In this document: positions 4,001 to 56,589 of the stretch, one piece after another
Numbering within the stretch: position 1 is the stretch's first letter
Layout of the letters: the number at the start of each line of letters is the position of its first letter
NCBI GenBank assembly: GCA_041666915.1
Contig: JBAYFZ010000001.1
Coordinates: 9,086-73,085, forward strand
Direction: 5' to 3'
Source of the DNA: Minisyncoccota bacterium
Lineage (GTDB): Bacteria > Patescibacteriota > Minisyncoccia > Phycocordibacterales > PALSA-1337
Length of the DNA stretch: 64,000 nucleotides
Position numbers and translations under genes: made by a program
The notes under the pieces: model-generated
The model's database searches: none
Told to the model about the DNA's origin: nothing
The model's input: only the letters and a program-made list of their open reading frames with translations

Positions 4001-4305
4001 TCGGTCCTTACTCTCTCATTACTCAACAGCCACTAGGAGGTAAAGCTCAAGGTGGAGGTCAGAGATTTGGAGAAATGGAAGTCTGGGCATTGCTCGGTCA
4101 CGGTGCCGCTCATACTTTGCGTGAAATTCTTACAGTTAAGTCAGATGATATCGTCGGTCGTTCACAAACATTCGATGCTATCGTCAAGGGTGAAAAGATG
4201 CGTGTTCCGAATTTACCAGCCTCATTCAATGTGCTTTTGAAGACATTACGTGGATTGGCGCTTAACGTGGAGTTGGTTAATAAGCCTAGAGTAGATGAAG
4301 AATAA
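1087..4305 (+). CDS. rpoB: DNA-directed RNA polymerase subunit beta
   Basis: 1072-aa ORF with diagnostic RpoB blocks ('GMELVRPKYDE', 'NVGLVLRLTMYAR', 'GHNALVAFMSWSGSNYEDAI', 'GDKMAGRHGNKGVISKILP', 'GGQRFGEMEVWAL'). True start may be the internal Met at 1117 ('MPITTTF'). Confidence 0.95.
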   Translation: MIGSKLIFIKMPITTTFRPKKYFSRYQTPLTVTPHMVESQLKSFADLMESGFENLLKEFSPITDYASKKFELSIGGMELVRPKYDEHFAKNNKMNYEGQIKVKVTLKNKSLNVVKEQEMFLADFPLMTDHGTFIVNGVERLITPQLAHSFGIFFTSEEVKGKNYFGAKIIPARGVWMEIESDADSTIYCRIDRKRKFPVTSLLRILGATTNEAILDLFKDKPEMRKVIELTLAKDHAKTVDESYLEIHKRLRDGDLATVDNARSFIQALLEPNRYDISRVGRFRFNKRFSKPMDEKSLERKTLNLDDIATTIGHIVTLSITPDMQADDIDHLGSRRVRYVGELLEQRIRLGLTQMKRNIQDKMSTVEPDVTLPISFIYPRPLQARIKEFFTTNQLSQFMLQENVLAEVEHLRTLTALGPGGLSRERAGFEVRDVHPSHYGRLCPIHTPEGPNIGLVLRLTMYARINDFGMIETPYAKVKNGKVTKEIVYMNALEEENFRIAHAATPYDKEGNITVDEAEVRINGKPFLAKKNEVDYIDVATNQAFSIATSLIPFLNHDDANRALMGSNMQKQATPCLVPEAPFVATGIEAKAVIDSGRVVAAPEDGEITHVDAKRVVFKSAKTGKSHEYNLVLFSRTNGFTAFHQRPIINLGDKVKKGDILVDTSTSDHGEMALGHNALVAFMSWSGSNYEDAIILSERVVKNSKWSSIHIEEFVVNVRDTKLGPEVTTCDITNVGEAKLKNLTEEGIVRIGAEVRPGDILVGKISPKGETQLTPEERLLRSIFGEKARDVKDTSKRMENGKRGRVISVKVFSREKGDKLESGIIKKIYVEVAQVRNVSVGDKMAGRHGNKGVISKILPEEDMPYMEDGTPIDVILTPLGVPSRMNLGQILELHLGLAANTLGYQAIVPPFTGATDAEIKEELVKAGFDKSGKMLLRDGRTGEHFKQPVAVGYMYILKLHHMVEDKIHMRSIGPYSLITQQPLGGKAQGGGQRFGEMEVWALLGHGAAHTLREILTVKSDDIVGRSQTFDAIVKGEKMRVPNLPASFNVLLKTLRGLALNVELVNKPRVDEE

Positions 4306-4331: not shown

Positions 4332-4709
4332 ATGGAAAATGACAAAGAAAAATTTAAAAATGAATTTAAAAAGAGATTGTATAAGTGGGTGCTGAGATTA
4401 GTTAAATTCATTGATAAACTTCCGAAAGATTCAGTCTCCAATGTTATGGGAAAGCAGTTACTTAGAAGTGGTACAAGTATATTGGCAAATTATGTTGAAG
4501 CAAGCTCAGCGAGTTCAAGAAAAGATTTTATTAATTTTTTCACACATTCGCTCAAATCTTCAAATGAGTCAAAGGTTTGGTTAACATTGTTACGTGATAC
4601 GGAGAAGGGAGATGTAAAGGAGTTGCTGTGGTTATTGAAAGAGTTAATTGAGGTTTCGAACATTATAGCTTCCAGCATCATTACGTTAAAGAAGAAAAAA
4701 CAATTATGA
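4332..4709 (+). CDS. four-helix-bundle protein (23S rRNA intervening-sequence protein family, TIGR02436-like)
   Basis: 125-aa ORF with family-typical block 'LLRSGTSILANYVEASSASSRKDFINFFTHSLKSSNES'; sits between rpoB and rpoC. Confidence 0.7.
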   Translation: MENDKEKFKNEFKKRLYKWVLRLVKFIDKLPKDSVSNVMGKQLLRSGTSILANYVEASSASSRKDFINFFTHSLKSSNESKVWLTLLRDTEKGDVKELLWLLKELIEVSNIIASSIITLKKKKQL

Positions 4710-5350
4710 AAACAAATAAGCAAAAAGGTTATGTAATTCCTCTAGTCACCGCTATTGTGGTTATTCTCGTTGTCGGCGTAGTGTATTACTCCACTCAAAG
4801 GAAACAGAGTTATTGTTGGCCATATTGTCCAAATATGACTGATCAAGACAGAGAAATCATTAAGAATCAAATGCGAGAGGCTACATCTACGAATCCGGAT
4901 ACTGCGAGCTGGAAGACATATACTAACCCCGTCTTCGGCTACAGTTTTAAGTACCCTTCTGAATCTGAATTGGCGGATCAAAAATCTTTTGACAATAATG
5001 GTAACCTCATAGTTGTAATTTTTCCACAGCCAAGTCAGGGGGTTGGTGTTCAATTTTCAGTTTCAGTTTCTGACAACACTGCTAATTGTTATAAAAATGA
5101 TTTAAGAGGCACGTCTACCAGAACGGTGACGATTAATGGAAATACTTACCATGTCGGTAGCGGTGGTGATCAAGGTATGGGTGGTGCGATTGGTGAATAC
5201 ACCAACTATGCCATTATAAAGAATAGTGCTTGTTATCAATTAGTCATGGATCTTCAATGGAATCGATCATCTGGAAGGAATTTCGATGAGCAAAAAATAC
5301 AGGATTATCTCAAACAAATCTTATCAACCTTTAAATTTATCAGCCAATAA
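4706..5350 (+). CDS. hypothetical membrane-anchored protein (N-terminal TM helix, extracytoplasmic domain)
   Basis: 214-aa ORF overlapping the upstream gene by 4 nt (ATGA). Hydrophobic stretch 'VIPLVTAIVVILVVGVVYY' after a K-rich N-terminus. No family recognised. Confidence 0.5.
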   Translation: MKTNKQKGYVIPLVTAIVVILVVGVVYYSTQRKQSYCWPYCPNMTDQDREIIKNQMREATSTNPDTASWKTYTNPVFGYSFKYPSESELADQKSFDNNGNLIVVIFPQPSQGVGVQFSVSVSDNTANCYKNDLRGTSTRTVTINGNTYHVGSGGDQGMGGAIGEYTNYAIIKNSACYQLVMDLQWNRSSGRNFDEQKIQDYLKQILSTFKFISQ

Positions 5351-5395: not shown

Positions 5396-8300
5396 ATGCA
5401 ACCAAATATAAATAAAAAGCAAAATGAACCAACACAGTTTGACCTAGTCAAATTGACATTGGCATCACCTGATAAGATCCTTGAATGGTCATATGGTGAG
5501 ATCACCAAACCAGAAACCATCAACTATCGTACACAACGATCTGAAAAGAGCGGTCTCTTTGACGAGCGCATCTTTGGTCCAGACCGAGATTTTGAATGTT
5601 ACTGTGGAAAATATCGCGGTATTCGTTACAAAGGTATTGTTTGCGAAAAGTGTGGAGTTGAAATTACACGCTCAATAGTTCGCCGTGACCGCATGGGACA
5701 TATTGAACTAGCAAGTCCAGTTTCTCATATCTGGTTCCTCCGCAGTGTCCCTTCACGTATTGGTCTTATCTTAGGAATGACTACTTCAGATCTTGAAAAA
5801 GTAGTTTATTTCGCTGGATATATTGTTACCAAAGTTCACGTAGGTGAAAAGGAGAGTTTCCTCAAAGAACTTGATACTGAATACAAGAGTAAAGTTAAGG
5901 CTGCTCAAGATGACAAGACCAAGGAAGCTTTGAAAGAACTCGTAGTCAATGCTCGTAAAGATATTGAAAGTCTCGTAGAAGGTTTTGTTATGGATGAAGC
6001 TACTTATCATAAATTTGCTGTGAAGTATGGCTCTCTATTTGAAGCTGGTATTGGTGCAGAAGTCATATACGAACTTTTGAAGAAGGTTGATTTAGTCAAA
6101 CTCCAAGCAGAATTGATCAAGGTTCATGATGTTGCTGGTACAGCTGATCGTGAAAGACTCTCAAAGCGTTTGTCATTGGTCAAGCAAATGATCAAAGCCA
6201 AGGTTCGTCCAGAATGGATGTTCCTAGTTCGTATTCCAGTCATTCCACCAGGACTCCGTCCAATGGTTGCTCTTGATGGTGGACGTTACGCTACTTCAGA
6301 TGTAAACGATTTGTATCGCCGTGTTATCAACCGCAACAATCGTCTTTTGAAATTGAAAGAGATCAATGCTCCAGAAGTTATTCTCCGCAACGAAAAGCGT
6401 ATTTTGCAAGAAGCTGTAGATGCTCTCATAGATAACTCTATCCGTCACAGTTCTTCTGCTGGTGCTGCCGCAGTTGCTGCTCAGAAGCGAGCTTTGAAAT
6501 CACTCTCAGATAGTTTGAAGTCAAAGAGAGGACTATTTCGTCAGAACCTTCTCGGTAAGCGCGTAGACTATTCTGGTCGTTCAGTTATCGTCGTCGGCCC
6601 AGAGCTCAAACTAGATGAATGTGGTTTGCCAAAACACATGGCCTTGGAATTGTTCCGTCCATTCGTCATCTCAGGACTTTTGAAAAAAGAATTAGCTTAC
6701 AACATTCGTGGTGCAAACAGACTCATTGATGATGGTGCAAAAGAAGTTTGGGAAATTCTAGAAGAAGTTATTAAAGGTAAATACGTACTCTTGAACCGTG
6801 CTCCTACTTTGCACCGTTTAGGTATTCAAGCTTTTAGACCTCAACTTATTGAAGGTAATGCTATCCATGTTCACCCACTCGTATGTACAGCTTTCAACGC
6901 TGACTTCGATGGAGACCAGATGGCCGTACACGTTCCGTTGTCAGATGAGGCTCAGATGGAAGCAAAGATGATCATGGCTTCTGATAGGAACATCTTGAAA
7001 CCAGGTAACAATGACCCTACTGTTGTAGCAAAGATGCTTGATATTGTGCTCGGTTGTTTCTGGGTTACGAAAGTTGTGGCTGGTGCAAATGGTGAAGGTA
7101 AAGCTTTTGAATCTCCTGATTCAGCTATCTTGGCAAATAGTTTTGAAAGTATAGATCTTCGTGCCAAGGTTAAAGTTGTAGCTCCAAATACTCCAAAGTA
7201 TGCAAAATTTGAAGGTAAGATTTTTGAGACTACAGTCGGAAGAATCTTGCTCAACAATATTTTGCCTGATGATTATCCTTTCATCAATGAAGAAGTTGGA
7301 CGCAAATATCTAGGTCAGATTATTGACGACATGATCACTCTCCGTGGAGCTGAGAATGTTGCGCCAATTCTAGATAAGATAAAATCTTTCGGTTTTAGTT
7401 ACGCTACTATTTCTGGTACAACTTGGGGTATTGATGACATCATGGTTCCAGATTCAAAGAAAGCAATCATTGCCAAAGGTAAAGTCCAAGCTGATATTGT
7501 CAGTAAGCAGTTTGATGAAGGTCTTCTTGCAGAAGAAGAAAGAATCAGAAAACATATTGAAATTTGGCAGAGAGCCAAGGGTGAAGTTGAAAAAGCAATT
7601 CCTGCTTCTTTGGACAAGCTCGGTTCTGTCTACGACATGATCACCTCTGGAGCTCGCGGATCCCTATCACAGATCACACAAATGGTTGGTATGAAAGGTC
7701 TTATCTCATCAGTTTCTGGAGAAACTATTGAATTCCCGATCCTATCCTGTTCCAAGGAAGGTCTTACTCCTATTGAATATTTCATTACTACTCACGGTTC
7801 AAGAAAGGGTCTCACAGACACCGCTTTGAACACCGCTAAAGCAGGTTACCTCACACGTAAGCTCTTCGTGGTTGCTCAAGATGTCGTAGTTTCTGAAGAA
7901 GATTGTGGTACAAAAGAATTTATTACTATATACAAGCAGACTGCTTCTGGTATGAATATTCCTCTTTCAAAGAATATTCGCGGACGTAATATTGCTGAAG
8001 ATATCAAGACTGCCGATGGAAAAGTTTTATTTGAAAAGGGACATCTCTTGAATAAGTCGGACGCTCTCAAAGTTGAAGCTGCTGGTATAAATGAAGTCAA
8101 AGTCCGTTCACCACTCTCATGTAAAACTCTACGTGGTGTTTGTTCCAAGTGTTACGGTCTAGACCTAGGTAGGAATACTCCTATCGCTCTAGGTGAAGCT
8201 GTAGGAACTATTGCTGCTCAAGCCATCGGAGAACCTGGTACACAGCTAACAATGCGTACATTCCATGCTGGTGGTACTGCTTCACAAGGTGGAGACATCA

Positions 8301-9073
8301 CATCAGGTCTACCACGCGTTGAAGAAGTTTTTGAAAAGCGTCGTCCAAAGAATCCTGCTGTGGTAGCAACCGTGAACGGTGTAGTTACAGGTATGAAGGA
8401 TGTTGGAAAAGAAAAGATGATCTATGTCATTCCAGATATTGAAGACAAGGGTAAAGGCAAAGCAACTGAAGTTGAATATGTCTTCCCATATCGCCGTACT
8501 ACTATGGTCAAAGCAGGTGATCGTGTAAAGAAGGGTCAACTCTTGACTGATGGTTCTGCTGATATTGACGAGATCTTTGAATACGGTGGAGAAGAGCGTG
8601 CCAAGGATTACGTTATTACTGAAGTTGGTAAGATCTACGAACTTCAGGGAGAAACGGTTTCCCGTAAGCACATTGAACTCATCGTTAAACAGATGTTCAG
8701 TCGTCGTAAGATCATTGATGGTGGAGATACAAACTTCACTGAAGGTATGATCATCGATGATATTCAATTTGCAGAAGAGAATGCGGAAGCCAAAGAAGCT
8801 GGAGGTACTATCGCCAAGGCCGAGAAATTGGTCATGGGTATTACCGAAACTTCTCTATCAAGAAAGAGTTTCTTGTCAGCTGCATCATTCCAGCACACTA
8901 CTCGTGTCCTCATCGCCAACGCGGTCCGTGGTGCTTCAGATGACCTCACAGGCCTCATGGAAAACGTTATCATTGGTCGCTTGGTTCCAGCTGGTTCAGG
9001 TTTCGTTGGATCACCAAAGAAAAAGATGATTGACGCTGTTTCAGCAGGTAGTGAGGAGGTTGAGGGGGAGTAA
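5396..9073 (+). CDS. rpoC: DNA-directed RNA polymerase subunit beta'
   Basis: 1225 aa. Zinc-binding '[20 protein letters not shown]', catalytic '[16 protein letters not shown]', trigger-loop and C-terminal conserved blocks. Confidence 0.95.
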
Positions 9074-9531: not shown

Positions 9532-10278
9532 ATGAAACCTGAATTTCTCACAAAAATCGATGCTGTTAAAGCCGAAATCGAAAAGCATGGCGTCCTAGAT
9601 CCGGCATTATTAAAGAATCTTGATGAGTGGTATCGCATAGAATTAACCTACACTTCAAATGCTCTAGAAGGTAACACTTTGACGCGTCAAGAAACCGCAT
9701 TGGTGGTTGAAAAAGATATTAGTATTGATGGTAAGCAACTAAGAGAACTCATTGAAGCGAAGAATCATGGAGAAGCAGTTGAGTTTATTAAAAAATTTGC
9801 CAAGGATCATTCTGGCCTCGGTGATGTCACTTTACCTGCTATTCTTGATATTCATCGTATCATTTTACAAAAGAATGATGACGTGAATGCTGGCAGACTT
9901 CGTAATGTTCCAGTCAGGATTTCTGGTTCAACATCAATAATGCCCAATCCAGCCTCGGTGCCAAAACTCATGGAAGAATTCATTACTTGGTTGAGTAGTA
10001 GTAAAGATCATTCAGCCTCAACCGCTATAGAAGCTCATTATCGTTTTGTCTCCATTCATCCATTTACCGATGGTAATGGTAGAACCGCCCGTCTTCTTCT
10101 TAATCTAATACTTTTACAAAATAATTATCCGCCAGTTATTATTCACCCTGAAGACAGGAGAGTTTACGTAACATCTCTTGAAAAAGCTCAAACAGGCGGA
10201 AGCAAAGATGATTATGAGAATTTTATGTTGGAGGCGGTACTAAAATCGGCAGAGGAGTATTTGAAATCTATTAAATAG
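9532..10278 (+). CDS. fic: Fic family protein (AMPylating/adenylyltransferase fold) with N-terminal inhibitory-helix motif (class II-like)
   Basis: Fic active-site motif 'HPFTDGNGRTARLL' (HxFx(D/E)GNGRxxR). N-terminal 'TSNALEGN' fits the (S/T)xxxE(G/N) inhibitory motif. Confidence 0.85.
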   Translation: MKPEFLTKIDAVKAEIEKHGVLDPALLKNLDEWYRIELTYTSNALEGNTLTRQETALVVEKDISIDGKQLRELIEAKNHGEAVEFIKKFAKDHSGLGDVTLPAILDIHRIILQKNDDVNAGRLRNVPVRISGSTSIMPNPASVPKLMEEFITWLSSSKDHSASTAIEAHYRFVSIHPFTDGNGRTARLLLNLILLQNNYPPVIIHPEDRRVYVTSLEKAQTGGSKDDYENFMLEAVLKSAEEYLKSIK

Positions 10279-20677: not shown

Positions 20678-20793
20678 TGTCATTCCCGCGAAGGCGGGAA
20701 TCCAGGATTATTACGAGATAATAGTTTGCTATAATTTATTTGAAAATGGATTTTGTGGTAACATCCTGGATTCCCGCCTTCGCGGGAATGACA
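20678..20793. repeat. MITE-like palindromic element, copy 1 (TIR 'TGTCATTCCCGCGAAGGCGGGAATCC...')
   Basis: About 30-bp terminal inverted repeats, each itself a hairpin TTCCCGC-GAAG-GCGGGAA. Opposite orientation to copies 2 and 3. Confidence 0.8.
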
Positions 20794-22304: not shown

Positions 22305-23621
22305 TTAGTTCTTTTTTAAGATATTTATTATTTCTCCTTCGGTGACGAACTCTTCATTTCCATTTGCCAAAGTTTTTACACATAATTTACCAGTCTTGAT
22401 TTCTTCATCACCAATGCAGATAACTTTTGGAATTCCACGTTTGACTACGTTGCCGATCTGGTCACCGAGTTTTTTGTTTGATAAATCTACTGCAACACGG
22501 ATACCTTGTTCGCGTAGCGTCTGCGCTAATTCTAGAGAATATGGAGTATTTTGTTCGCCAACAATACAAATAGAAACATCGGCAATATCATTTCTCTTTG
22601 GGAGGGTGCCATATGTTTCCATAAGGTCTTTTGCTATCAAATCTCCAGTTCCAAAACCAACGGCTGGCATTTTGTCATTACCGAATAATGCCAAGAGATC
22701 GTCGTAACGGCCACCACCAAAGACTGAGCGTCGGTTTATAGGATTGAGGTCAAATATCTCAAATACGATACCAGTATAATAATCAAAACCACGCATGAGT
22801 GTCTGATCAAAGCGTACATTGGTGATGCCGAGCCTTTCGAGGCCTTCTATGACCTGACGAATCTCCTTTAAACCAACATGTTCTTCTTTTGTTTGGGGTA
22901 ATAGGGAAGTGAATTCTTCAAAATTTTTGGAATTGAGTAGAGTAAGGAATTTTTGGGAAATGACAACAGAGTTGAATATCTCTTCAACCCCAGCCTGAAA
23001 AGCCTCTGGTTTGAGTTTATCTTTTTTGTCTATGAGTTTAGAGACTTTTTGTGACAATGTTTCATCCAAACCAAAAACTTCCTTGGTTATGTAATTCATA
23101 ACCTTGCGATTGTTGAGACGAATTTCAAAATCTGTATCTTTGAGACCATAAGATCTGACGATATCGTAAGCTAGATTGATGATCTCAATCTCGGCGTTTA
23201 TGGATTCTACACCGAAAATATCAGCATTGAGTTGCCAATGTTCACGAGTGCGTCCACGTTGTGGTTGTTCGTATCGGAAAAGGTTTGGAATAGAAAACCA
23301 ACGAATAGGGGATACGAGTTCACGTCTACGCCCAGCTATCATGCGAGCAACGGTAGGTGTCATCTCAGGACGAAGTGTAACCTCACGATCTCCGCGGTCA
23401 GTGAAGGTGTAAGTTTGTTCGTTGACTATTTCTGCGCCGGATTTTGCTCGATAAAGATCGGCAGGTTCCAAAACGGAGGCGCCGTATTCTTCGTAGCCAT
23501 ACTTTTCGCAATTATTTCTCCAGATATTGAAGATTTTATTTTCGGTGGCCATATCGGCTGGATAGAAGTCACGGACACCCTTATATGGGTCAACACCTAG
23601 TTTTTTTACATTTTCTTTCAT
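22305..23621 (-). CDS. hisS: histidine--tRNA ligase
   Basis: Class II motif 2 'RYEQPQRGRTREHWQLNADIFG', 'GGGRYDDL', C-terminal anticodon-binding domain. Confidence 0.9.
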   Translation of the reverse strand: MKENVKKLGVDPYKGVRDFYPADMATENKIFNIWRNNCEKYGYEEYGASVLEPADLYRAKSGAEIVNEQTYTFTDRGDREVTLRPEMTPTVARMIAGRRRELVSPIRWFSIPNLFRYEQPQRGRTREHWQLNADIFGVESINAEIEIINLAYDIVRSYGLKDTDFEIRLNNRKVMNYITKEVFGLDETLSQKVSKLIDKKDKLKPEAFQAGVEEIFNSVVISQKFLTLLNSKNFEEFTSLLPQTKEEHVGLKEIRQVIEGLERLGITNVRFDQTLMRGFDYYTGIVFEIFDLNPINRRSVFGGGRYDDLLALFGNDKMPAVGFGTGDLIAKDLMETYGTLPKRNDIADVSICIVGEQNTPYSLELAQTLREQGIRVAVDLSNKKLGDQIGNVVKRGIPKVICIGDEEIKTGKLCVKTLANGNEEFVTEGEIINILKKN

Positions 23622-26481: not shown

Positions 26482-27459
26482 ATGAAAAGAATAGTCATCA
26501 AGGAAGGTCCAGTAGTCTTTTTGAGGAATGTTGTAATCATGGAGATACTGGCCGTGGTTATCTTTGTGGCTATATCTTACCTAGCCAATTATGAGCAATT
26601 ATTTATTGGAATTGGTTTGGATAAGTATGTTCAGTATCACAATTTCATTATAATTGTATTTTCTTTATTCCAACTATTCTATATACTAGCTTTATTTTTT
26701 GATTGGTATCTCAAGTATTACGAAATCCGTGAAAGAGAAATAGTTCGTCGCTCAGGTTTGTTTTTGAGACGTCAAAGGTCTGTTTCTTTGTTGCACATCG
26801 TTGCCGTAGAAGTAACTCAAGGACCTCTGGATCGTATACTTCGTCATGCAAATTTAATTCTAGAACACGATAATGGCAGAACCACTATCATTCAAAATGT
26901 TGCTGGTTATGAAGAATACGTTGAAGTTATCAAGCAGACTATTGATAATACGATGAAGAAACCGATACATTCTAGAAGTTTGCAGATGTTCCTCAAAGAA
27001 GGTGAAGGTTTGTTTTTAGAATACAAACAGACTTTGCGTTATGATATCCGCAAAAAAAGTGTAAGCAAAGATGTAGAAAGGGCAGTGATAAAAACTATTG
27101 CTGGTTTTATGAATGCTGACGGAGGAACTCTGATAATAGGTGTAGATGATGAAGGTAAGGTTACTGGTCTTAAAAATGATTTTGAAACTTTGGCCAAGAA
27201 AAATAGAGATGGTTTTGAAAATCATTTGAATAATCTTGTAAAGACGATGTTGGGTATAAAATTTGCCAATTATATACACACCCGTTTTGACTATTTCAAC
27301 GACAATGAAGCCTGTCTAGTCTCTGTAGACCCTAGTCATAAGCCGGCTTACATCCACAATTCTGAAGGTAAAGAAGAATTCTTCGTTAGAATGGGAAATT
27401 CCACCCAGCCATTTTCTATGAGTGAAGCTGAGGAATATATGAAAACAAGGTGGAAATAA
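26482..27459 (+). CDS. membrane bPH_2 (YdbT/YdbS-like bacterial PH) domain fused to AlbA_2 (Schlafen-like) domain
   Basis: Two TM helices then 'IREREIVRRSGLFLRRQRSVSLLHIVAVEVTQGPLDRILRHANLIL'. C-terminal 'EGEGLFLEYKQTLRYD...IAGFMNADGGTLIIGVDDEGKVTGL' (AlbA_2 pattern). Confidence 0.55.
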   Translation: MKRIVIKEGPVVFLRNVVIMEILAVVIFVAISYLANYEQLFIGIGLDKYVQYHNFIIIVFSLFQLFYILALFFDWYLKYYEIREREIVRRSGLFLRRQRSVSLLHIVAVEVTQGPLDRILRHANLILEHDNGRTTIIQNVAGYEEYVEVIKQTIDNTMKKPIHSRSLQMFLKEGEGLFLEYKQTLRYDIRKKSVSKDVERAVIKTIAGFMNADGGTLIIGVDDEGKVTGLKNDFETLAKKNRDGFENHLNNLVKTMLGIKFANYIHTRFDYFNDNEACLVSVDPSHKPAYIHNSEGKEEFFVRMGNSTQPFSMSEAEEYMKTRWK

Positions 27460-27488
27460 AAAAGGAGGTTAACCTCCTTTTTTATTTT
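27458..27488. terminator. bidirectional intrinsic terminator (AAGGAGGTT/AACCTCCTT palindrome flanked by A- and T-runs)
   Basis: 'aaaaaaggaggttaacctccttttttatttt' between convergent genes. Confidence 0.7.
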
Positions 27489-29403: not shown

Positions 29404-29431
29404 AAAAACCCCGTCACATGTGACGGGGTTT
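29404..29431. terminator. perfect palindromic hairpin CCCCGTCACA|TGTGACGGGG flanked by A5/T3 (bidirectional terminator)
   Basis: Seen in sequence upstream of typA. Confidence 0.6.
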
Positions 29432-35610: not shown

Positions 35611-36585
35611 TTACTTTATCTCACAAACATTTTTCAGTGCGGTAATGTCGTCTGTGGTTAGAGTAAGATTTGAATCCATATTATAGGCGTACATTATAGC
35701 TTTTGAATCTGCTACATGATCCAATCCCAAAGCGTGGCCAAATTCATGAGCCAAGACACGAATTAGTTTGTTGTAATCTTTGTATTGATAAATATTTATT
35801 ATTTGACCAGTTTCATCGCTCACGTATTCTCCTTCTTGAAATTCTGGGCCGTTGGAAGTACTGATGGTGTTATAAGTACTGACATTTTGGTTTATTTCTT
35901 TATTCAAAGAATTCAAACTATTGGCTGTATAGTTGAGTTGATTTATCGTATCATTCAACCTTTTGTTCGCATCATTGATGTTAGTTGCTTCCAAATTGAG
36001 AGAAGCTTTTGTTTTTTGTAACTTGGAGAATTCTTCTTTTGTAGCACCTCCGCGACTGTTCCAATACGCTACAGCTTTTTCATAAGCCGTTTTATTGGCT
36101 TCGTATGTATTTATGAGTATCTGAATAGCACTCTTTTGACTATTATATGAATTTTGCAGAGAAGTGTATTTGGCTTTTAGATCACTATATGAGCTTTTAC
36201 TATTATCTATAGTTGATCCGATAGTGTTCATCTGCACCGTAGCTTCTTGGCGATTGTCAAAAATCAGATTTATTTTGAGGTCGTCTATATCGTTGGTTTT
36301 ATCGTCAGAATATTTGAATAACTCTCTACCAAGTGCTGAATTCCAGATACTTACCGCTTTATTCATATTTGTTATGAATTGTGATCGTGTCTGACCAAAT
36401 TTTTCATCAAAATCTCCAATGTAATATGTTATTGGTATAGTACAAGGCTTGTCCCACCCAATAGATAAGCGGATATTCTGGTAAGCGCGTTTGTAATTGT
36501 CACGATTGTAATAGACGACACCGCCTAGAGTAGCGATGACTAGTAAAAAGAATAGAAATTTTACAATTTTATTCAAAATATTCAT
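35611..36585 (-). CDS. membrane-anchored metzincin (matrixin/M10-like) zinc metalloprotease with coiled-coil insert
   Basis: 'VLAHEFGHALGLDHV' (HExxHxxGxxH) and Met-turn 'AIMYAY'. Start set at Met 36585; the 17 upstream ORF-track codons are the translated repeat element. Confidence 0.7.
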   Translation of the reverse strand: MNILNKIVKFLFFLLVIATLGGVVYYNRDNYKRAYQNIRLSIGWDKPCTIPITYYIGDFDEKFGQTRSQFITNMNKAVSIWNSALGRELFKYSDDKTNDIDDLKINLIFDNRQEATVQMNTIGSTIDNSKSSYSDLKAKYTSLQNSYNSQKSAIQILINTYEANKTAYEKAVAYWNSRGGATKEEFSKLQKTKASLNLEATNINDANKRLNDTINQLNYTANSLNSLNKEINQNVSTYNTISTSNGPEFQEGEYVSDETGQIINIYQYKDYNKLIRVLAHEFGHALGLDHVADSKAIMYAYNMDSNLTLTTDDITALKNVCEIK

Positions 36586-36597
36586 TAATGTTCTTTC

Positions 36598-36693
36598 TGT
36601 GTCATTCCCGCGAAGGCGGGAATCCACGGTTACCACAAGATATAGATTGTTGATTTGTAATAATCCTGGATTCCCGCCTTCGCGGGAATGACG
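36598..36693. repeat. MITE-like palindromic element, copy 2
   Basis: Same TIRs as copy 1 ('tgtcattcccgcgaaggcgggaatcc...ggattcccgccttcgcgggaatgac'). About 85% identical to copy 3. Confidence 0.8.
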
Positions 36694-36702
36694 CAGGGTC
36701 TA

Positions 36703-37914
36703 TTACTTCAACCTAGATCTCCTCAAGAAAGCTGGTATTGCACCCCAATCATCATCTTCATCTTTGTTTTCTTTCGTAACCTCAATCTTTTTTGATTCAG
36801 TTTTCTCTACTAAGACAGGTTCTTTTCTTGGATCAAGTGGGGAATTGAATATTTTTCCTTTTTCTTGAGTACGTTTCATTATACTTGAAAGAGAAGATTC
36901 GGCTGGTGTTGAAGAGAGGACGTTGGAATGTTGAGCTGGTTTTTGTGCTAATGGTGCTGTTTCTGGAAAACCTGTAGCAATGACAGTTATCTTGATCTCA
37001 TTTTTCTTGAGCTTATCGTCGCGAACTGTACCGAAGATGATTTTGGCTTCAGGGTCAATGGACTCGGTAATAACTTTTGCAGCATCTTGGATTTCAAACA
37101 TTGTAAGATCTTCACCACCAGCGATAGAGAATAGGACACCTTTGGCTCCAGCGATGGAAACATCCAGAAGAGGGGAATTGATGGCAGCTTTGGCAGCTTC
37201 TATGGCGCGGTTTTCACCAGAGGCATTACCTATACCCATGAGAGCAGAACCAGCATTTTCCATGACAGTACGAATATCGGCGAAGTCTATATTGATGAGT
37301 CCGGGTGTAGTGATGAGGTCGGAGATACCTTCAACTGCTTGGCGCAAGATTTCATCACACATGTTAAAAGCGTTTTTGACGGTTGTCTCTTTGCCTATAG
37401 CAGATAGGAGGCGGTCGTTTGGAATAACAATGATAGCATCAACTTCTTTGCGAAGATCTTCAAGGGCAGCTTCAGCAATACGAGAACGTTGACGACCTTC
37501 AAAATAGAAAGGTTTTGTAACTACGGCAACCGTGAGGCAACCGAGTTCTTTTGCTGTTCTTGCAACGATAGGACTGGCACCACTACCAGTACCTCCACCT
37601 AGACCACAAGTAACAAAAACCATGTCAGCACCTTTGACTGTTTCTTGGACATCATCTTTTGTTTCCTCTACAGCACGACGGCCAAGGTCAGAATTCATAC
37701 CGGTACCTAGACCGCGAGTTAGATTTTTACCAATGTTGATGCGCTTTTTTGCTAGAGAACGATGGAGGTCTTGAGAATCTGTGTTGATGGCAATAAAATC
37801 TACGCCTCTGACTTTGGAAGCGATCATGTGGTTTACTGCATTGCCACCGGAGCCACCTACTCCAAGGACTTTAATTCTGGCAAATGCTTCAATATCGGGA
37901 GTTATGTTTGGCAT
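36703..37914 (-). CDS. ftsZ: cell division protein FtsZ
   Basis: 'GVGGSGGNAVNHM', tubulin signature 'GGGTGSGASPIVA', C-terminal conserved tail. Confidence 0.95.
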   Translation of the reverse strand: MPNITPDIEAFARIKVLGVGGSGGNAVNHMIASKVRGVDFIAINTDSQDLHRSLAKKRINIGKNLTRGLGTGMNSDLGRRAVEETKDDVQETVKGADMVFVTCGLGGGTGSGASPIVARTAKELGCLTVAVVTKPFYFEGRQRSRIAEAALEDLRKEVDAIIVIPNDRLLSAIGKETTVKNAFNMCDEILRQAVEGISDLITTPGLINIDFADIRTVMENAGSALMGIGNASGENRAIEAAKAAINSPLLDVSIAGAKGVLFSIAGGEDLTMFEIQDAAKVITESIDPEAKIIFGTVRDDKLKKNEIKITVIATGFPETAPLAQKPAQHSNVLSSTPAESSLSSIMKRTQEKGKIFNSPLDPRKEPVLVEKTESKKIEVTKENKDEDDDWGAIPAFLRRSRLK

Positions 37915-38157
37915 GATTTTTTCTTTTAATCTTAAATGAATTCTGGATTATTCCGAAGCGGTAGGCTCTGGGTTGTCCTTAGGTTGTATATTACCACAGG
38001 AGTTTCAAGATACAAGTAAAGAGGGCTTAGTAGAGCCGTATTAAGACATGACAAGTAGGAACCGTCAAAAGGATTGACTGATATGTCAAATTGTGTCAGA
38101 CTTTACAATAAATAGAATAGAAATAGGACATTAATAAAAGAAAGGAGAAGTTCGTTT

Positions 38158-38412
38158 ATGGCTAGATCATACCTAGTTGCTTTTAAGAGTGGTGAAATGA
38201 GATCTTACCGCGGCGTTGAGGCTGAAAGAGTGGATGTTAGCTTAGGGGGTCTTTCAGAAGAGTTAGTCATTCGGGAAATCGCTCTTGCGGTTGCTCAAAA
38301 AATAGGTGTTCCTGTCGAAACTGTAGTCATCAAGGATTATATCCCTGATTACGATGGTAATGCTGCCGGATTGAGAAGAGCTCTGATACGTGCTCATATG
38401 ATGCGTACTTAA
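38158..38412 (+). CDS. hypothetical small protein (84 aa)
   Basis: Good RBS 'aaaggagaagttcgtttATG'; followed by an intrinsic terminator; no family recognised. Confidence 0.4.
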   Translation: MARSYLVAFKSGEMRSYRGVEAERVDVSLGGLSEELVIREIALAVAQKIGVPVETVVIKDYIPDYDGNAAGLRRALIRAHMMRT

Positions 38413-38431
38413 AAAAAGTCATTTAAATTCA

Positions 38432-38467
38432 CCCCGCAATTTCCAAAAGGAGATTGCGGGATTTTTG
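38432..38467 (+). terminator. intrinsic terminator (CCCGCAAT-N12-ATTGCGGG plus ATTTTTG)
   Basis: Seen in sequence immediately after the 38158-38412 ORF. Confidence 0.7.
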
Positions 38468-38518
38468 ATGGTGGCGATTATCTTTACGGCGGTAGTACGT
38501 TTTTCTTTAAAGATTAGT

Positions 38519-38590
38519 GACCCCCTCCCCCCGGGGGAGGGGGTGTTTCCGTATTCGTTTGATTGATACCCCCTAGGGGGGAGGGGGTAT
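38519..38590. repeat. pair of G/C-tract palindromes (CCCCCTCCCCCCGGGGGAGGGGG and ATACCCCCT-AGGGGGG-AGGGGGTAT); four G5-6 runs on the plus strand
   Basis: Seen in sequence; exceptional G/C homopolymer tracts in an AT-rich genome. Confidence 0.6.
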
Positions 38591-38660
38591 CAAAGAGGTA
38601 TTACAAATAAGAAATGTTAATCGGGCGGGTATTCTTTTTCGTAATAGTAAGTACTAATTG

Positions 38661-38689
38661 AAAAGTGACGGATTTTTCGTCACTTTTTT
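38661..38689 (+). terminator. perfect hairpin AAAAGTGACG-gattttt-CGTCACTTTT followed by T-run
   Basis: Seen in sequence; could terminate a plus-strand RNA that includes the G/C palindromes. Confidence 0.55.
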
Positions 38690-38849
38690 GTAAGTGAGAA
38701 AAAGAGATATCTTAGATGTTTAGCTATGTTTAATGGTCATCAAAAAAACGCTTTGTCCAACCACGTTCATCTGACCGTATCCATCCAACGGTCGACGATA
38801 TTCTGTAACTATCTTAGTAGTCTTATCCTACACAAAGCTTACACAAAAT

Positions 38850-39419
38850 CTATGCAAACAAAAAAACTAGTATTGCTATCATTGTAATGAAAGTCTCAGC
38901 ATAGAAGGTCACTGACGTTAAGTATTCACTCTTCACATATTTCCAATAATAATTGAAACCACCAACTGTACCATTTGGTTTTGGACCTTCAATCTTTGTC
39001 TTTATGAGACAAAAGCTCTTATTAGAAAACGGCCATAACCAACGAATACCTGATTCTATAGAATCCAAAATAAAATGGGTCCATGTGCCGGCGAGGATCA
39101 GTAATCCCACAAAAGATATGAATGATGAATTAAAAATAAAACCAAAGATAGCGATTAACGCACTAATTCCTAACCAAAAAATAGGTGTGTGAGTTATATG
39201 TTCGCGATGAGAGTGAACTTTTGAATGTTTATGATTACGATTTTCTAAATAAAACCACGCAAGATCCAAATCCGGCAATTCACCAGCCAAAGTTCCAATT
39301 ATAAAAAGTACCGAAAGTTCGGTGGGTGAAAATGATGAAAAACCAGCTGTACTTGAAGACAGTGCCAATATTCCATATGTAGCCAAGTATCCGCCTGCAA
39401 GATGTCCGGGGAGAACCAT
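38850..39419 (-). CDS. membrane-bound metal-dependent hydrolase, YdjM/DUF457 family
   Basis: Polytopic; N-terminal 'LPGHLAGGYL' and His-rich loops 'HKHSKVHSHREHITH'. Confidence 0.55.
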   Translation of the reverse strand: MVLPGHLAGGYLATYGILALSSSTAGFSSFSPTELSVLFIIGTLAGELPDLDLAWFYLENRNHKHSKVHSHREHITHTPIFWLGISALIAIFGFIFNSSFISFVGLLILAGTWTHFILDSIESGIRWLWPFSNKSFCLIKTKIEGPKPNGTVGGFNYYWKYVKSEYLTSVTFYAETFITMIAILVFLFA

Positions 39420-39493
39420 ATTAGTTTTGTTTTTCAGACACCCTTACCATTAGCCGGCTGGTGTATGGTGGGGCATCTGGAGTAAGTTTAATA

Positions 39494-40693
39494 TTAAGGT
39501 AAGTACTGTCTTATTAAAAGTTTAACTTTTTTCCAAACGTTTCTTATGGCGACTTTGGTATTGTCTATCTCAGGACTTTCTTCGGTATGAAGGCCCCAGA
39601 GACATAGACCGTAAGCCACTGCCCAAGTAGCATCTTTGAATGAAGATTTGGAATCAAGGTGACCAATGGAACCAATACGTGAAGGCAATTTCAAAGAGAC
39701 TTTGGCTAATGTATCTATGGTATTTAGACCAGAACCTCCACCAGTAATGATGATACCAGCAGGAAGTAAACCATTTCTACCAATCTTCTTTAGGTGGGCC
39801 TCAATAAGTTCAAAAATATCAGAAAGGCGAGCAGCGATGATTTCCTCTAGTTTCTTTTTTGGATATGAACTGCCTGTGATGACGCCGATCTTGATTTGCT
39901 CAGCTTCTTCTAGTGGAACTTTGAGACCGAGGGCAATGTCATTTGTTATATCTGTAGAGCCGATAGGAAAGACTTCTAAAGATGTTGGAATATTATTTTC
40001 AAAGACGGCGATAGAGACGGTCTCGGCTCCGATATTTGCCAATACACAGCCTGCGATCTTTTGTGATTTGGTAAGAGTAACAAAACCTGCTGCTAAAGGT
40101 GCAGCCATGACATCTTCTACTTCTACACCAGTTTCATTGACTGCAGAGATGAGATCAGTAACATGATGGTCAAGACAAGTTATGAAGAGAGTTTTCTGTT
40201 CTATTTTATTACCCTTCATACCTTCGGGTGAACCTAGGGAAGGGAATCCATCTATTTTATATTGCAAAGGAATATCGTAAATGATTCTACGATTGGCTAT
40301 ATCTGCACGAGGAATATCTTTTTCACATTGTTCGTGAAGATTTTTGAGATCAAGACTAGTTATCTCTGCATCGGCACGAGATGTCATGACGAAACTGTTG
40401 ACGGTCGTACCAGCTAGACCTATTCCAGAAATACCTATAAAAGCTTTTTTGATTTTTAGATCAGCTTTTTCTTCGGCTATAGCTATAGCTTTTTCGATAC
40501 TGTTGGCAACATCGCGAACATTGGTTACGTAACCGTGTCTAAGTCCGCGAGATTCGGCCATGCCAGAAGCGATGATTTTTGGCATGCCTTTTTCGTTACG
40601 ATCTTTGACACTAGCGATAACAACCTTCACGTAGTAAGTTCCTATATCTATTCCGGTTATTATATTTCTGGACATAATTAGAAAGATGTTCAA
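39494..40693 (-). CDS. ftsA: cell division protein FtsA
   Basis: Actin-fold 'ITGIDIGTYYVKVVIASV', '...IITGGGSGL', SHS2 insert. Start is probably the Met at 40672. Confidence 0.85.
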   Translation of the reverse strand: MNIFLIMSRNIITGIDIGTYYVKVVIASVKDRNEKGMPKIIASGMAESRGLRHGYVTNVRDVANSIEKAIAIAEEKADLKIKKAFIGISGIGLAGTTVNSFVMTSRADAEITSLDLKNLHEQCEKDIPRADIANRRIIYDIPLQYKIDGFPSLGSPEGMKGNKIEQKTLFITCLDHHVTDLISAVNETGVEVEDVMAAPLAAGFVTLTKSQKIAGCVLANIGAETVSIAVFENNIPTSLEVFPIGSTDITNDIALGLKVPLEEAEQIKIGVITGSSYPKKKLEEIIAARLSDIFELIEAHLKKIGRNGLLPAGIIITGGGSGLNTIDTLAKVSLKLPSRIGSIGHLDSKSSFKDATWAVAYGLCLWGLHTEESPEIDNTKVAIRNVWKKVKLLIRQYLP

Positions 40694-40719: not shown

Positions 40720-41103
40720 TTAGACTTTAAATTGTTTGCGCAAATCAACCTCTATGTCTTCCATTGTACTACTATGGTCGTATCCTTTCAAATGAACACA
40801 ACCGTGGATAAAGAGAAAAGCTAAGAAATTTTCAAAAGTCCTTTCAAATTTTACCGCTTCTTTTTTCGTTTCGGCTAAAGAGATATAGATTTCTCCTTCA
40901 TTATCTGAAATAGGGAAACTCAGGATATCGGTAGGATATTCTTTGTCACGATATATGGTATTGAGTTTCTCTATCTGCTTTGAAGTAGTGATAATCAGAT
41001 TTAAAGAGTATTTTTTACCCAAAGAAGCTTCCTTTATTGCTTGAAAAGGAAGCTTTGGAAGCTCAGATGTAGTTTCGTTTATGATTGAAAAAGTCTTAGA
41101 CAC
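40720..41103 (-). CDS. ybeY: rRNA maturation endoribonuclease YbeY
   Basis: Metal-binding motif 'HGCVHLKGYDH'. Confidence 0.85.
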   Translation of the reverse strand: MSKTFSIINETTSELPKLPFQAIKEASLGKKYSLNLIITTSKQIEKLNTIYRDKEYPTDILSFPISDNEGEIYISLAETKKEAVKFERTFENFLAFLFIHGCVHLKGYDHSSTMEDIEVDLRKQFKV

Positions 41104-41400: not shown

Positions 41401-42663
41401 TTACTTCTTATTATGTTTAGCCTCAATACTTTTCATGTATTTTGGCAATTCTTCCAAAGAGATAATATCTTGAGAATGGGTATCATTTTTACGTACGATA
41501 GCTGTTCGTTCTACGGCTTCTTTTTTGCCAACCACAATGACGTAAGGAGTGTTGTATTTTTCTACAGATGATACTTGGGCACCAAGTCTATCTTTGGCCA
41601 ACGATAGATATAGAGGGATCTTGACTTGACGAAGACTTTCAATGATTTCAAGGGAAATAAGTTTTGATTGAAGACCAAGCTGGACGAAAGAAGCGATAGG
41701 TTTTTTGGTTTTTGTTATAGGTTTGCGTAGACCGTTTTTGCTCTCTTTGATGAGAAGGGATATGCCAACTCCTGGGATGTCTCGCTTCATAGCTAGACGT
41801 TTTGCTAGATTGTTGTAACGCATACCGACAGCCAAGATATGATCACTCTTTGTTGTCTTGTCATTGTTGAGGATTGTGAAGATCGTCTCGGTCCAATATT
41901 TGCGATTACCCAAAAGACCGTTGTTTACTGTGTAAGGTATTTTCAAAGCTTCAAAAAATTCTAAGATTTCTTCCAAATGTTGACGACCACTTTCTGAAAG
42001 GAAATCCATCGCACGTGGAGCTTTGCTATTTAATTCCTGACAATCTTTGTCGTGGCAAGCTAGAAGTTCAAAAGCATCTTTCTTGAAAAGCTCACGACTA
42101 TTGGTGGACATCTCATTTATGTGTTTGCGGTAGTAAGCAGTAAGTTCTCTAGAGAAACGACCGAGGGAGTCACGGTCTCCTATAGAATTTATTTCTACGG
42201 TAGTAGAAGTATAACCTTCTTCGGCTAGCATCATTCTGGCTGTCTGGATGAGAGTTGCCTCTGCAATAGGTCCAGAAGGTCCTAGGATTTCTAGATCAGC
42301 GTATCTGTGTGCACCAGAACCTCTGCAAGAATCTTTGAAATAAAGCATTACTGGTTGAGGGGCAGAATGCATGTTTAGCTCGTGGTATGTACGAATAAGA
42401 GCTATTTTTTCTTCTACGTGTAAAGGTAACCTTTTATGATTTTCAGTTTCATCGTCTATGTAGTCATTACCAATGATATCTTTTACAGCATCAAGATCAG
42501 CTTTGCCTATTGAAGGACTTTTTATAGGTGTAAATCCGTAGTACACAGCAACTTCTCCAATCTTATCTAAATGGTCATGAGCAATAAATTTTGAGCCACT
42601 TGATTCATTTTTTTTATTTTTGTTCATGTTTTTGTCTGTTAATTGATTATTGATTATATTCAC
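41401..42663 (-). CDS. HisRS-like class II aaRS paralog with degenerate motif 2 (HisZ-like) and C-terminal anticodon-binding-type domain
   Basis: 'LYFKDSCRGSGAHRYADLEILGPSGPIAEATLI' aligns to HisRS motif 2 ('[27 protein letters not shown]') but lacks the Arg residues. C-terminus 'YVIVVGKKEAVERTAIVRKNDTHSQ'. Confidence 0.5.
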   Translation of the reverse strand: MNIINNQLTDKNMNKNKKNESSGSKFIAHDHLDKIGEVAVYYGFTPIKSPSIGKADLDAVKDIIGNDYIDDETENHKRLPLHVEEKIALIRTYHELNMHSAPQPVMLYFKDSCRGSGAHRYADLEILGPSGPIAEATLIQTARMMLAEEGYTSTTVEINSIGDRDSLGRFSRELTAYYRKHINEMSTNSRELFKKDAFELLACHDKDCQELNSKAPRAMDFLSESGRQHLEEILEFFEALKIPYTVNNGLLGNRKYWTETIFTILNNDKTTKSDHILAVGMRYNNLAKRLAMKRDIPGVGISLLIKESKNGLRKPITKTKKPIASFVQLGLQSKLISLEIIESLRQVKIPLYLSLAKDRLGAQVSSVEKYNTPYVIVVGKKEAVERTAIVRKNDTHSQDIISLEELPKYMKSIEAKHNKK

Positions 42664-56077: not shown

Positions 56078-56156
56078 GGGCTAACTTTTGTCTTATCTTT
56101 ATAAAAATATGAATTCAAAGTGCAAAGTGCAAAGTGCAAAGTTTAAGACAATAATT

Positions 56157-56585
56157 ATGTTGTTTGTTTTTTCTGTAATTTTGTTTACACCTTTTGTTCA
56201 AGCACAAACTATTAAACCAGAACCTGTAGATGTGAACAGTTCTTCTTTTAGATTACTCATTTGTGATGGCCCAGTTCTTCCAGCTGGTGTAACTCCTCCA
56301 AAAGCAAACTATGTTCCTTGTGACTTCAAAGGGTTGATGATGCAGATTCAACATTTTATAAATATTGCTATGGTTGGAGGTGTTATCATTGCTATCTTAG
56401 GTATGACTTATGCTGGTATTCTGTATATCTCTGGTAACCCTGCTAAGATAAAAGAAGCTCACGATATATTTCCAAGTATTCTGATAGGATTTATAGTAAT
56501 GTTATCAGCATGGTTTATCGTCTATCAGGTTATAAATTGGTTGACTGGTGGTAATACTTTGAGTGTTCTTCTTGGTAATCCATAA
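56157..56585 (+). CDS. VirB2/TrbC-like (T4SS-pilin-type) small membrane protein, paralog 1 of 6
   Basis: Signal peptide 'MLFVFSVILFTPFVQAQT', then TM1 'AMVGGVIIAILGMTYAGILYI', loop 'SGNPAKIKEAHD', TM2 'ILIGFIVMLSAWFIVYQV'. ORF is open from TTG 56088. Confidence 0.55.
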   Translation: MLFVFSVILFTPFVQAQTIKPEPVDVNSSSFRLLICDGPVLPAGVTPPKANYVPCDFKGLMMQIQHFINIAMVGGVIIAILGMTYAGILYISGNPAKIKEAHDIFPSILIGFIVMLSAWFIVYQVINWLTGGNTLSVLLGNP

Positions 56586-56589
56586 AATT

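Follow-up and report, generated by a model that had tools for sequence, protein, structure and literature searches.

Repetitive extragenic palindromic (REP) sequences and bacterial interspersed mosaic elements (BIMEs), of which E. coli and Pseudomonas offer examples, are short GC-rich palindromes in intergenic DNA that are paired across a short spacer and are often found between convergent genes. They carry a conserved 5' head tetranucleotide, GTAG-like, beside the palindrome, and transcribed REPs form 3' hairpins that stabilize the upstream mRNA or attenuate read-through. Correia elements and Rickettsia palindromic element (RPE)-type elements, known from Neisseria and Rickettsia, are intergenic, ~70-120 nt long and built as end-to-end inverted repeats, where each terminal repeat holds a GC-rich hairpin and the centre is AT-rich. 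In yeast mitochondrial DNA, i.e., in a very AT-rich genome, short GC-rich palindromic islands called GC clusters are found between the genes and are regarded as mobile or selfish. Here, we describe a 69-bp doublet of two palindromes made of G and C runs, which is located between ftsZ and a YdjM-family gene in a 64-kb stretch of DNA (referred to below as the window) from a 450-kb metagenomic contig of a Candidatus Paceibacterota bacterium (Patescibacteria, candidate phyla radiation).

On balance, we lean towards the view that this locus is a REP/BIME-like doublet of hairpins, or one that resembles a miniature inverted-repeat transposable element (MITE), which resides within a lineage-specific indel of 373 bp, is probably neutral or selfish and lies outside the control region of ftsZ. 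As in REPs and BIMEs, the palindromes are short, GC-rich, intergenic and paired, both having perfect 12-nt arms. In contrast to REPs, of which a genome harbors hundreds, the doublet is found at one locus in 64 kb. It also differs in having no GTAG-type head (the left flanks are TTAGTG followed by ACCCCC and GATTGAT followed by ACCCCC), in having arms of G/C homopolymers and in that no REP-associated tyrosine transposase (RAYT) was found among the window ORFs of at least 100 amino acids. The Correia and RPE-type elements share with the doublet the intergenic position, the size range, the end-to-end inverted repeats, the hairpin in each terminal repeat and the AT-rich centre, as do two repeat families of the window itself, denoted A and B. 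Family A differs from the doublet in that it has three copies with terminal repeats of ~30 nt, while the doublet is single-copy, has 18-nt arms and is found inside the 373-bp indel. Hairpins of the form C5TC5-loop-G5AG5 in other phyla have 11-nt arms identical to those of the doublet and frequently form doublets, tandem or inverted, with distances of 43-55 nt in an intergenic, MITE-like arrangement, but unlike the window copy they mostly have 3-8-nt loops, have a third arm in 39% of cases and are found mostly in GC-rich hosts. The yeast GC clusters offer an analogy only, because they belong to another domain of life and to other sequence families, with no evidence of a shared mechanism.

The main import of these observations is a correction. 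An earlier note on this DNA described ftsA and ftsZ as split by inserted genes; the order of the genes is instead the normal one in this clade, and the palindromes are carried on a dispensable block.

The palindrome doublet and its flanking hairpins

The elements of the locus are as follows.

38413-38849: non-coding DNA of 437 nt between the 84-codon open reading frame (ORF) ORF84 and the YdjM-family gene
38433-38466, + strand: terminator 1, intrinsic terminator of ORF84, with a 12-bp stem (38433-38460) followed by ATTTTT, from a terminator scan
38473-38845: lineage-specific block of 373 bp, present here and absent from the related contig L007, from BLAST
38520-38588: GC-rich core of 69 bp, 65% GC, one inverted-repeat element with 18-nt arms and 89% complementarity
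38520-38544: palindrome 1, ACCCCCTCCCCC-C-GGGGGAGGGGGT, arms 12/12 perfect
38563-38593: palindrome 2, TTGATACCCCCT-AGGGGGG-AGGGGGTATCAA, arms 12/12 perfect, G-rich loop of 7 nt
38661-38687 (feature to 38692), + strand: second hairpin, AAAAGTGACG-N7-CGTCACTTTT, perfect 10-nt arms, likely terminator

Two perfect palindromes of G and C runs between two hairpin terminators are thus present in the sequence, as the earlier note had it. The arms of the core, i.e., its terminal inverted repeats, are found at 38520-38537 and 38571-38588. Runs of this type are compositional outliers, as also claimed earlier: 4 of the 19 G runs and 3 of the 5 C runs of at least five nucleotides in the whole 64 kb are found within 68 nt. 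When the 11-mer GGGGGAGGGGG was sought with at most one mismatch, all three matches in the window were found at the palindrome locus, where 0.12 matches were expected. The clustering is far above chance.

As RNA, palindrome 1 folds into a hairpin of -25.1 kcal/mol and palindrome 2 into one of -20.1 kcal/mol. Neither has a U-tract on either side, i.e., the palindromes lack what defines an intrinsic terminator; the sequence that follows palindrome 1 is GTTTCCG on the + strand and CACTAAT on the - strand, while palindrome 2 is followed by AGAGGTA (+) and TCAAACG (-). The hairpins at 38433-38466 and 38661-38692 do combine a stem-loop with a U-tract. Terminator 1 folds at -21.5 kcal/mol (z -5.3) and is retained in L007, where one G-C pair is exchanged for A-T; the compensatory nature of this change supports its assignment as the terminator of ORF84. 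The second hairpin (-14.3 kcal/mol, z -4.2 on the + strand; -11.8 kcal/mol, z -5.3 on the - strand) has a T6 run (38684-38689) that starts within its 3' arm. Because its 5' side is A-rich, it is possibly a bidirectional terminator; it was not flagged by a simple terminator scan and is not present in L007.

Inverted repeats and poly-G tracts may arise as assembly or sequencing errors, for example as poly-G artefacts or chimeric palindromes. Assemblers typically break at inverted repeats, and the Logan contigs of SRR6484324 indeed break within palindrome 2 (38592) and at the second hairpin (38662), leaving 38593-38661 uncovered, which indicates that assemblers struggle at such repeats. These contigs cover both palindromes and are identical to the window there. 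Two other assemblies, ENA k141_1421082 (450 kb) and JGI Ga0376277_0075592, span the region and are 100% identical. Because the three assemblies come from different assemblers and do not differ at a single base where they cover the region, the palindrome sequence is no artefact, and the probability that we assign to this explanation is negligible. No strain variants were found by exact look-ups of FtsZ, YdjM and ORF84, all three assemblies being 100% identical.

The 373-bp block is absent from the closest relative

The closest relative is represented by L007, a Logan contig of 1 kb, which shares with the window ftsZ, the divergent intergenic region, ORF84 and terminator 1 at 84% identity. BLAST homology between the two ends at 38472 and restarts at the stop codon of the YdjM gene, which defines 38473-38845 as an indel. 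The two G/C palindromes belong to this block, as do the second terminator-like hairpin and a tail rich in A and T; the GC content of the core is 65%, while that of the remainder of the block is 35%. In L007, the distance from the ORF84 stop codon to that of the YdjM gene is 62 nt and this spacer is free of G/C tracts. The earlier note had named relatives with the same arrangement and no G/C tracts, together with a lack of transcript or structure formation, as what would speak against its proposal, and L007, with the same order of ftsZ, ORF84, terminator and YdjM gene, supplies the first half of this. Among the three origins that the note had considered for the non-coding DNA (a small structured RNA, a G-quadruplex (G4)/i-motif regulatory element or the scar of a foreign insertion), the comparison with L007 fits the scar best.

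The block holds no convincing ORF: stop codons abound in all six frames and the ORFs found are just 22-53 amino acids long. A consensus scan returned no promoter-like site in it, and no tRNA or tmRNA was found in the gap between ftsA and ftsZ. With Rfam at gathering thresholds, only two tRNAs were found in the entire window, and at E <=10 the best sub-threshold matches in 37900-38900 reached <=24 bits, to be compared with thresholds of >=37 bits. BLAST showed no second copy of the block in the 64 kb. No DNA similar to the block was found in phage or plasmid collections, and the exact core of palindrome 2 gave one unrelated match in viral contigs, with dissimilar flanks.

The doublet probably works like REP/MITE elements and is probably a new member of that broad kind. 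We use the term in this broad rather than in its strict sense, because the 64 kb contain a single copy of the doublet, and neither a target-site duplication nor a nearby transposase was found. In functional terms, the doublet, i.e., two GC-rich palindrome copies separated by an AT-rich spacer within 38473-38845, would be neutral or selfish DNA that was either acquired or made locally. It would be uninvolved in the expression of ftsZ, for which a separate conserved promoter would be responsible. If the doublet has any effect, this would be passive: transcription reading in from ORF84 (+ strand) or from the ftsA-YdjM unit (- strand) would yield RNA hairpins of -20 to -25 kcal/mol, and these, together with the terminator at 38661-38692, would hinder read-through and 3'-to-5' decay. 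It is thus plausible that the doublet, lying between two convergent units (ORF84 and ftsA-YdjM), acts as a passive barrier to read-through or at RNA 3' ends. Its mobile or neutral nature, the polarity of the indel and effects at the RNA level are inferred.

Several observations weigh against this interpretation. Neither the 69-bp core nor the 373-bp block is bordered by a target-site duplication, and convincing terminal inverted repeats are missing from the block taken as one unit. What is absent from L007 is the entire 373 bp and not merely the core, i.e., L007 does not present the clean empty site of a MITE. The indel could be an insertion in the window or a deletion in L007, given that the more distant relatives lack both ORF84 and the DNA next to it. 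The motif and the block are each found once in the 64 kb, while REPs and MITEs are multicopy elements, and no transposase, Y1_Tnp or RAYT-like Pfam domain was found in the window ORFs of at least 100 amino acids. Furthermore, because the motif is of low complexity and many of its hosts are GC-rich, the similarity across phyla may be the result of convergence rather than of common descent; some chance matches of the hairpin are to be expected in high-GC genomes. Finally, long hairpins recur in the same spacer in four lineages, which could mean that structure is selected there instead.

Gene order and the predicted ftsZ promoter

The genes that surround the doublet are listed below.

35611-36636, - strand: M10-family peptidase gene, from gene call and Pfam
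36703-37914, - strand: ftsZ, 403 amino acids, Pfam Tubulin and FtsZ_C
37916-38019, - strand: predicted ftsZ promoter and 5' untranslated region (UTR), from consensus match and conservation
38158-38412, + strand: ORF84, orphan protein-coding gene
38850-39419, - strand: gene of a YdjM-family membrane protein, Pfam PF04307, E = 2.9e-19
39494-40681, - strand: ftsA, Pfam FtsA and SHS2_FTSA
40720-41103, - strand: ybeY

Homologues of the YdjM protein with 43-52% identity were found in six other lineages of Patescibacteria, and all of them reside in a ybeY-ftsA-YdjM-ftsZ cluster, one of these lineages having a GC content of 65%. The partial contig L007 has the same YdjM-ftsZ neighbourhood. Because the order is the same in relatives, the YdjM gene is an ancestral member of the cluster and not an insertion. 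Consequently, of the insertions that were said to separate ftsA and ftsZ, the YdjM gene belongs to the clade-wide gene order, while ORF84 and the 373-bp block are indeed lineage-specific. The 84-residue ORF in opposite orientation and the ~430 bp of non-coding DNA were described correctly, the latter being 437 nt. That a PF04307 gene is always found between ftsA and ftsZ (L144, L145, L148, L272 and L273) suggests a link of this family to cell division in the clade.

The spacer between the YdjM gene and ftsZ is 18, 92, 103, 266, 289, 477, ~550 (L007) and 935 nt (window) long in eight lineages. Its sole stretch conserved across lineages is 37916-38019, which is 77-78% identical to the corresponding DNA of L145, L147 and L148, although the YdjM proteins of the relatives are only ~50% identical. 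In L007, it is nearly identical, i.e., better conserved than the coding sequence of ORF84. Judging from this conservation and from a consensus match, the stretch probably carries an extended -10 promoter of ftsZ itself. The -35 element, TTGTAT, is the reverse complement of 38010-38015, and the extended -10 element, TGGTAATAT, is that of 37988-37996; the resulting TTGTAT-N16-TGgTAATAT is located ~70 nt upstream of the ftsZ ATG and is followed by a leader of ~65 nt. The same motif is read in L145 and L148, while L272 has TTGTGT...TGtTAATAT. Two loci in metagenome contigs contain the 21-mer of the ftsZ promoter; both are more distant and both are without ORF84. The palindromes are found ~500 bp from the promoter and lie outside the conserved region that is predicted to control ftsZ.

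An inverted repeat had been noted as TTGAC-N5-GTCAA at 38079-38093 and offered as a possible ftsZ operator. The spacer is in fact 6 nt (TTGAC-N6-GTCAA) and the position is 38074-38089. The repeat is degraded to TTGAC/ATCAA in L007 and is located ~60 nt upstream of the ftsZ -35 element, outside the clade-conserved 37916-38019; the assignment as an operator is therefore unsupported.

Searches of 5.8 billion clusters and of 1.8 billion representatives returned one homologue of ORF84 (NCBI locus tag WCS89_00225), that of L007, which is 78% identical. The ratio of nonsynonymous to synonymous substitution rates (dN/dS) relative to L007 is 0.31 for ORF84 and 0.05 for the YdjM gene. The value for ORF84 points to purifying selection and, together with the single homologue, to a real but young and fast-evolving gene. 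The protein has no Pfam match. Its AF2 model, which is moderately confident (predicted local distance difference test score, pLDDT, 76), displays a beta-beta-alpha-beta-alpha fold that gave no significant match in a Foldseek search of the PDB (best E 0.055, template modelling (TM) score < 0.5).

Inverted-repeat elements in the window and in relatives

An inverted-repeat scan of the window, which has a GC content of 39%, identified at least eight further long inverted-repeat elements, essentially all of which are intergenic, and two families of these are multicopy. The coding density of the ultra-small Paceibacterota genomes is ~85%, yet they contain many such intergenic elements with long hairpins. 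Those of the window, and those found in the YdjM-ftsZ spacer of three relatives, are given below.

20678-20793, 36597-36696 and 61999-62094: family A, MITE-like, three copies with terminal inverted repeats of ~30 nt, TGTCATTCCCGCGAAGGCGGGAATCC...
16070-16179 and 17472-17581: family B, AT-rich, ~110 nt, two copies that flank a sigma-70 (rpoD-like) gene (16251-17480) on both sides
15221-15342, 61757-61859 and 63383-63444: single long inverted repeats with perfect arms of 18-22 nt or arms of 31 nt
L272, 3614-3774: YdjM-ftsZ spacer hairpin, -92.9 kcal/mol, z -12.3
L145, 6563-6681: YdjM-ftsZ spacer hairpin, -52.4 kcal/mol, z -7.5
L148, 1541-1718: YdjM-ftsZ spacer hairpin, -68.7 kcal/mol, z -8.2

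Family A and the G/C doublet are built alike: both terminal repeats hold a GC-rich hairpin, and the DNA between them is AT-rich. One of its copies (36597-36696) is located directly 3' of the ftsZ stop codon, and its 20-nt hairpin has exact matches in at least 120 viral contigs of IMG/VR. The copy beside ftsZ also gives rise to a spurious N-terminal extension (…DSRLRGND…) of the neighbouring peptidase ORF. The single inverted repeat at 61757-61859 is found between the genes of tRNA-Leu and tRNA-Lys. Two perfect palindromes with no loop, flanked by A- and T-tracts, look like bidirectional terminators: that at 27454-27487 (AAATAAAAAAGGAGGTT/AACCTCC...) is found between convergent genes and that at 29406-29431 (AAACCCCGTCACA/TGTGACGGGGTTT) between divergent ORFs.

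The spacer hairpins of L272, L145 and L148 are mutually unrelated in sequence and are all found just upstream of the conserved ftsZ promoter. The spacer thus repeatedly contains such hairpins in different lineages. It is either a site that tolerates their arrival or, with lower probability, one where strong structure is useful. The L148 spacer also holds four tandem repeats of 16 nt.

The same hairpin arms in other genomes

The hairpin CCCCCTCCCCC-N0-8-GGGGGAGGGGG was found at at least 120 loci in contigs of a one-genome-per-species collection, spread over many phyla, and in 16 viral contigs. Within the genomes of Gemmataceae, Gemmatimonadota, Rokubacteria, Longimicrobium and Anaerolineae it forms multicopy repeat families, and among the matches listed doublets spaced by 43-55 nt are common. 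In hosts with a lower GC content, Alloprevotella and Scytonematopsis, the hairpins are the terminal repeats of MITE-like elements of ~150 nt. A third G-rich arm is found in 54 of the 138 listed hairpins (39%; loci L008-L143), while the background is 0.7%; it is located on exactly one side, never on both, and the hairpin thereby comes to overlap a canonical G4 motif of four runs. The window copy has no third arm. Neither this hairpin nor that of family A has been described in bacteria in the searchable literature. Intergenic hairpins carried by ultra-small Paceibacterota genomes are in part common to other phyla and to viral contigs.

These matches allow a bolder reading, which we consider quite unlikely, where the hairpins mark small mobile elements of a family so far undescribed, which extends across phyla and has terminal repeats that switch between hairpin and G-quadruplex. 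The window copy, upstream of ftsZ, would then have reached this reduced, AT-rich genome rarely and recently, possibly through horizontal transfer from other members of the community, and would act as a strand-specific structural barrier between the convergent units. If this were true, a mobile family of G-run hairpins with such a switch would add a new class to the bacterial repeats.

Alternative explanations

The recurrence of structure in the spacer raises the possibility that the hairpins, together with the additional terminator, form a selected insulator or processing module, which would stop antisense transcription from ftsA-YdjM from running through ORF84 into the ftsZ promoter, stop read-through from ORF84 into the YdjM gene or offer a processing site of the RNase III type. 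The window, L145, L148 and L272 independently hold very stable long hairpins of unrelated sequence in this spacer, and L272 has no further long inverted repeat within 6.5 kb. Moreover, the hairpin shared with L007 has a U-tract on the + strand alone, which leaves the YdjM gene of L007 without an obvious terminator, while the 373-bp block brings in a hairpin with A- and T-rich flanks. In four other lineages, however, the spacer is 18-103 nt long and free of hairpins, the closest relative manages without the block, and the GC palindromes have no U-tracts; since long inverted-repeat elements are found in many other spacers of the window, no special explanation is needed for this one, and we regard selection for insulation as unlikely. 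Another view, that the block is a one-off piece of foreign or locally made DNA with no mobile-element identity, e.g., captured during repair or recombination or generated by template switching or slippage at the G/C runs, agrees with the single copy, with the lack of a target-site duplication, of terminal repeats of the block and of a nearby transposase, and with a core of 65% GC between flanks of 35%. Palindrome 2 also resembles palindrome 1 minus the 7-nt CCCCCCT, which fits slippage. The phage, plasmid and viral collections searched contained no donor, however, structured repeat families built on identical 11-nt arms are found in many genomes, and the doublet architecture is that of family A in the same genome, such that a one-off origin appears rather unlikely.

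The remaining two explanations place a function in the nucleic-acid structure itself. In one of them, the four runs of five to six G on the + strand, and the C runs on the - strand, form a G-quadruplex/i-motif switch that modulates transcription or replication. The G4 prediction proposed in the earlier note, made with G4Hunter, yielded scores of 1.5-1.9 at the locus, with the window maximum, 1.92, at 38571-38604. With the G4 model of ViennaRNA, the minimum for the + strand RNA is a fold that contains a two-tetrad G4, at -51.8 kcal/mol, as compared with -47.9 kcal/mol for Watson-Crick pairing only; each G5AG5 tract alone is predicted to form a two-tetrad G4 at -18 kcal/mol, and the G6 run at 38576-38581 is unpaired in the hairpin-2 fold. 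The frequent third G-rich arm in other phyla points in the same direction, and formation of a G4 by the core in single-stranded nucleic acid is physically possible according to these models. On the other hand, the model energies for two-tetrad G4s are generous, all G tracts but one have a perfect C partner 1-7 nt away on the same strand, and a G4 would compete directly with the duplex and with hairpins of -20 to -25 kcal/mol. The arrangement of the runs, G5-A-G5-N32-G6-A-G5, has a central loop of 32 nt, which falls outside the canonical motif (loops <=7 nt), and the element is not found in L007. A switch of this type is thus decidedly improbable. We consider it very improbable that the locus instead encodes a small RNA, or a structured 3' UTR, i.e., an RNA of ~230 nt on the + strand that extends from just behind terminator 1, or by read-through of it, to 38661-38692 with the GC hairpins as its core. 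Both flanking terminators do face the + strand, the intergenic region on this strand is more stable than its shuffles (z -5.5), and the core has two nearly isoenergetic + strand folds, two independent hairpins (-45.2 kcal/mol together) and a nested long hairpin (-47.9 kcal/mol). Yet the - strand, where the core favours the two-hairpin fold (-44.1 kcal/mol), folds equally well (z -6.9), as would be expected of palindromic DNA rather than of a strand-specific RNA. In addition, there is no promoter-like site in 38467-38520, no Rfam match and no counterpart in L007, and there are no homologues in which covariation could be assessed.

Other features of the window

The rpoB (1087-4305) and rpoC (5396-9073) genes are not contiguous: a 23S_rRNA_IVP-family gene (4332-4709) and an ORF of 214 amino acids of unknown function (4706-5350) intervene. 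Between rpoC and dnaG, a Fic/DOC-family gene (9532-10278) and a gene of a MazF/PemK-type toxin (11303-11629) are found. The window harbors two histidyl-tRNA synthetase (HisRS) genes, at 22305-23621 and 41401-42663, where one is regular and the second is a degenerate, HisRS-like gene, which has an anticodon-binding domain but merely a weak match to the catalytic core; the latter adjoins the ybeY-ftsA cluster in relatives as well. Finally, five small genes in a row at 56088-58233 each encode a T4SS_pilin domain.

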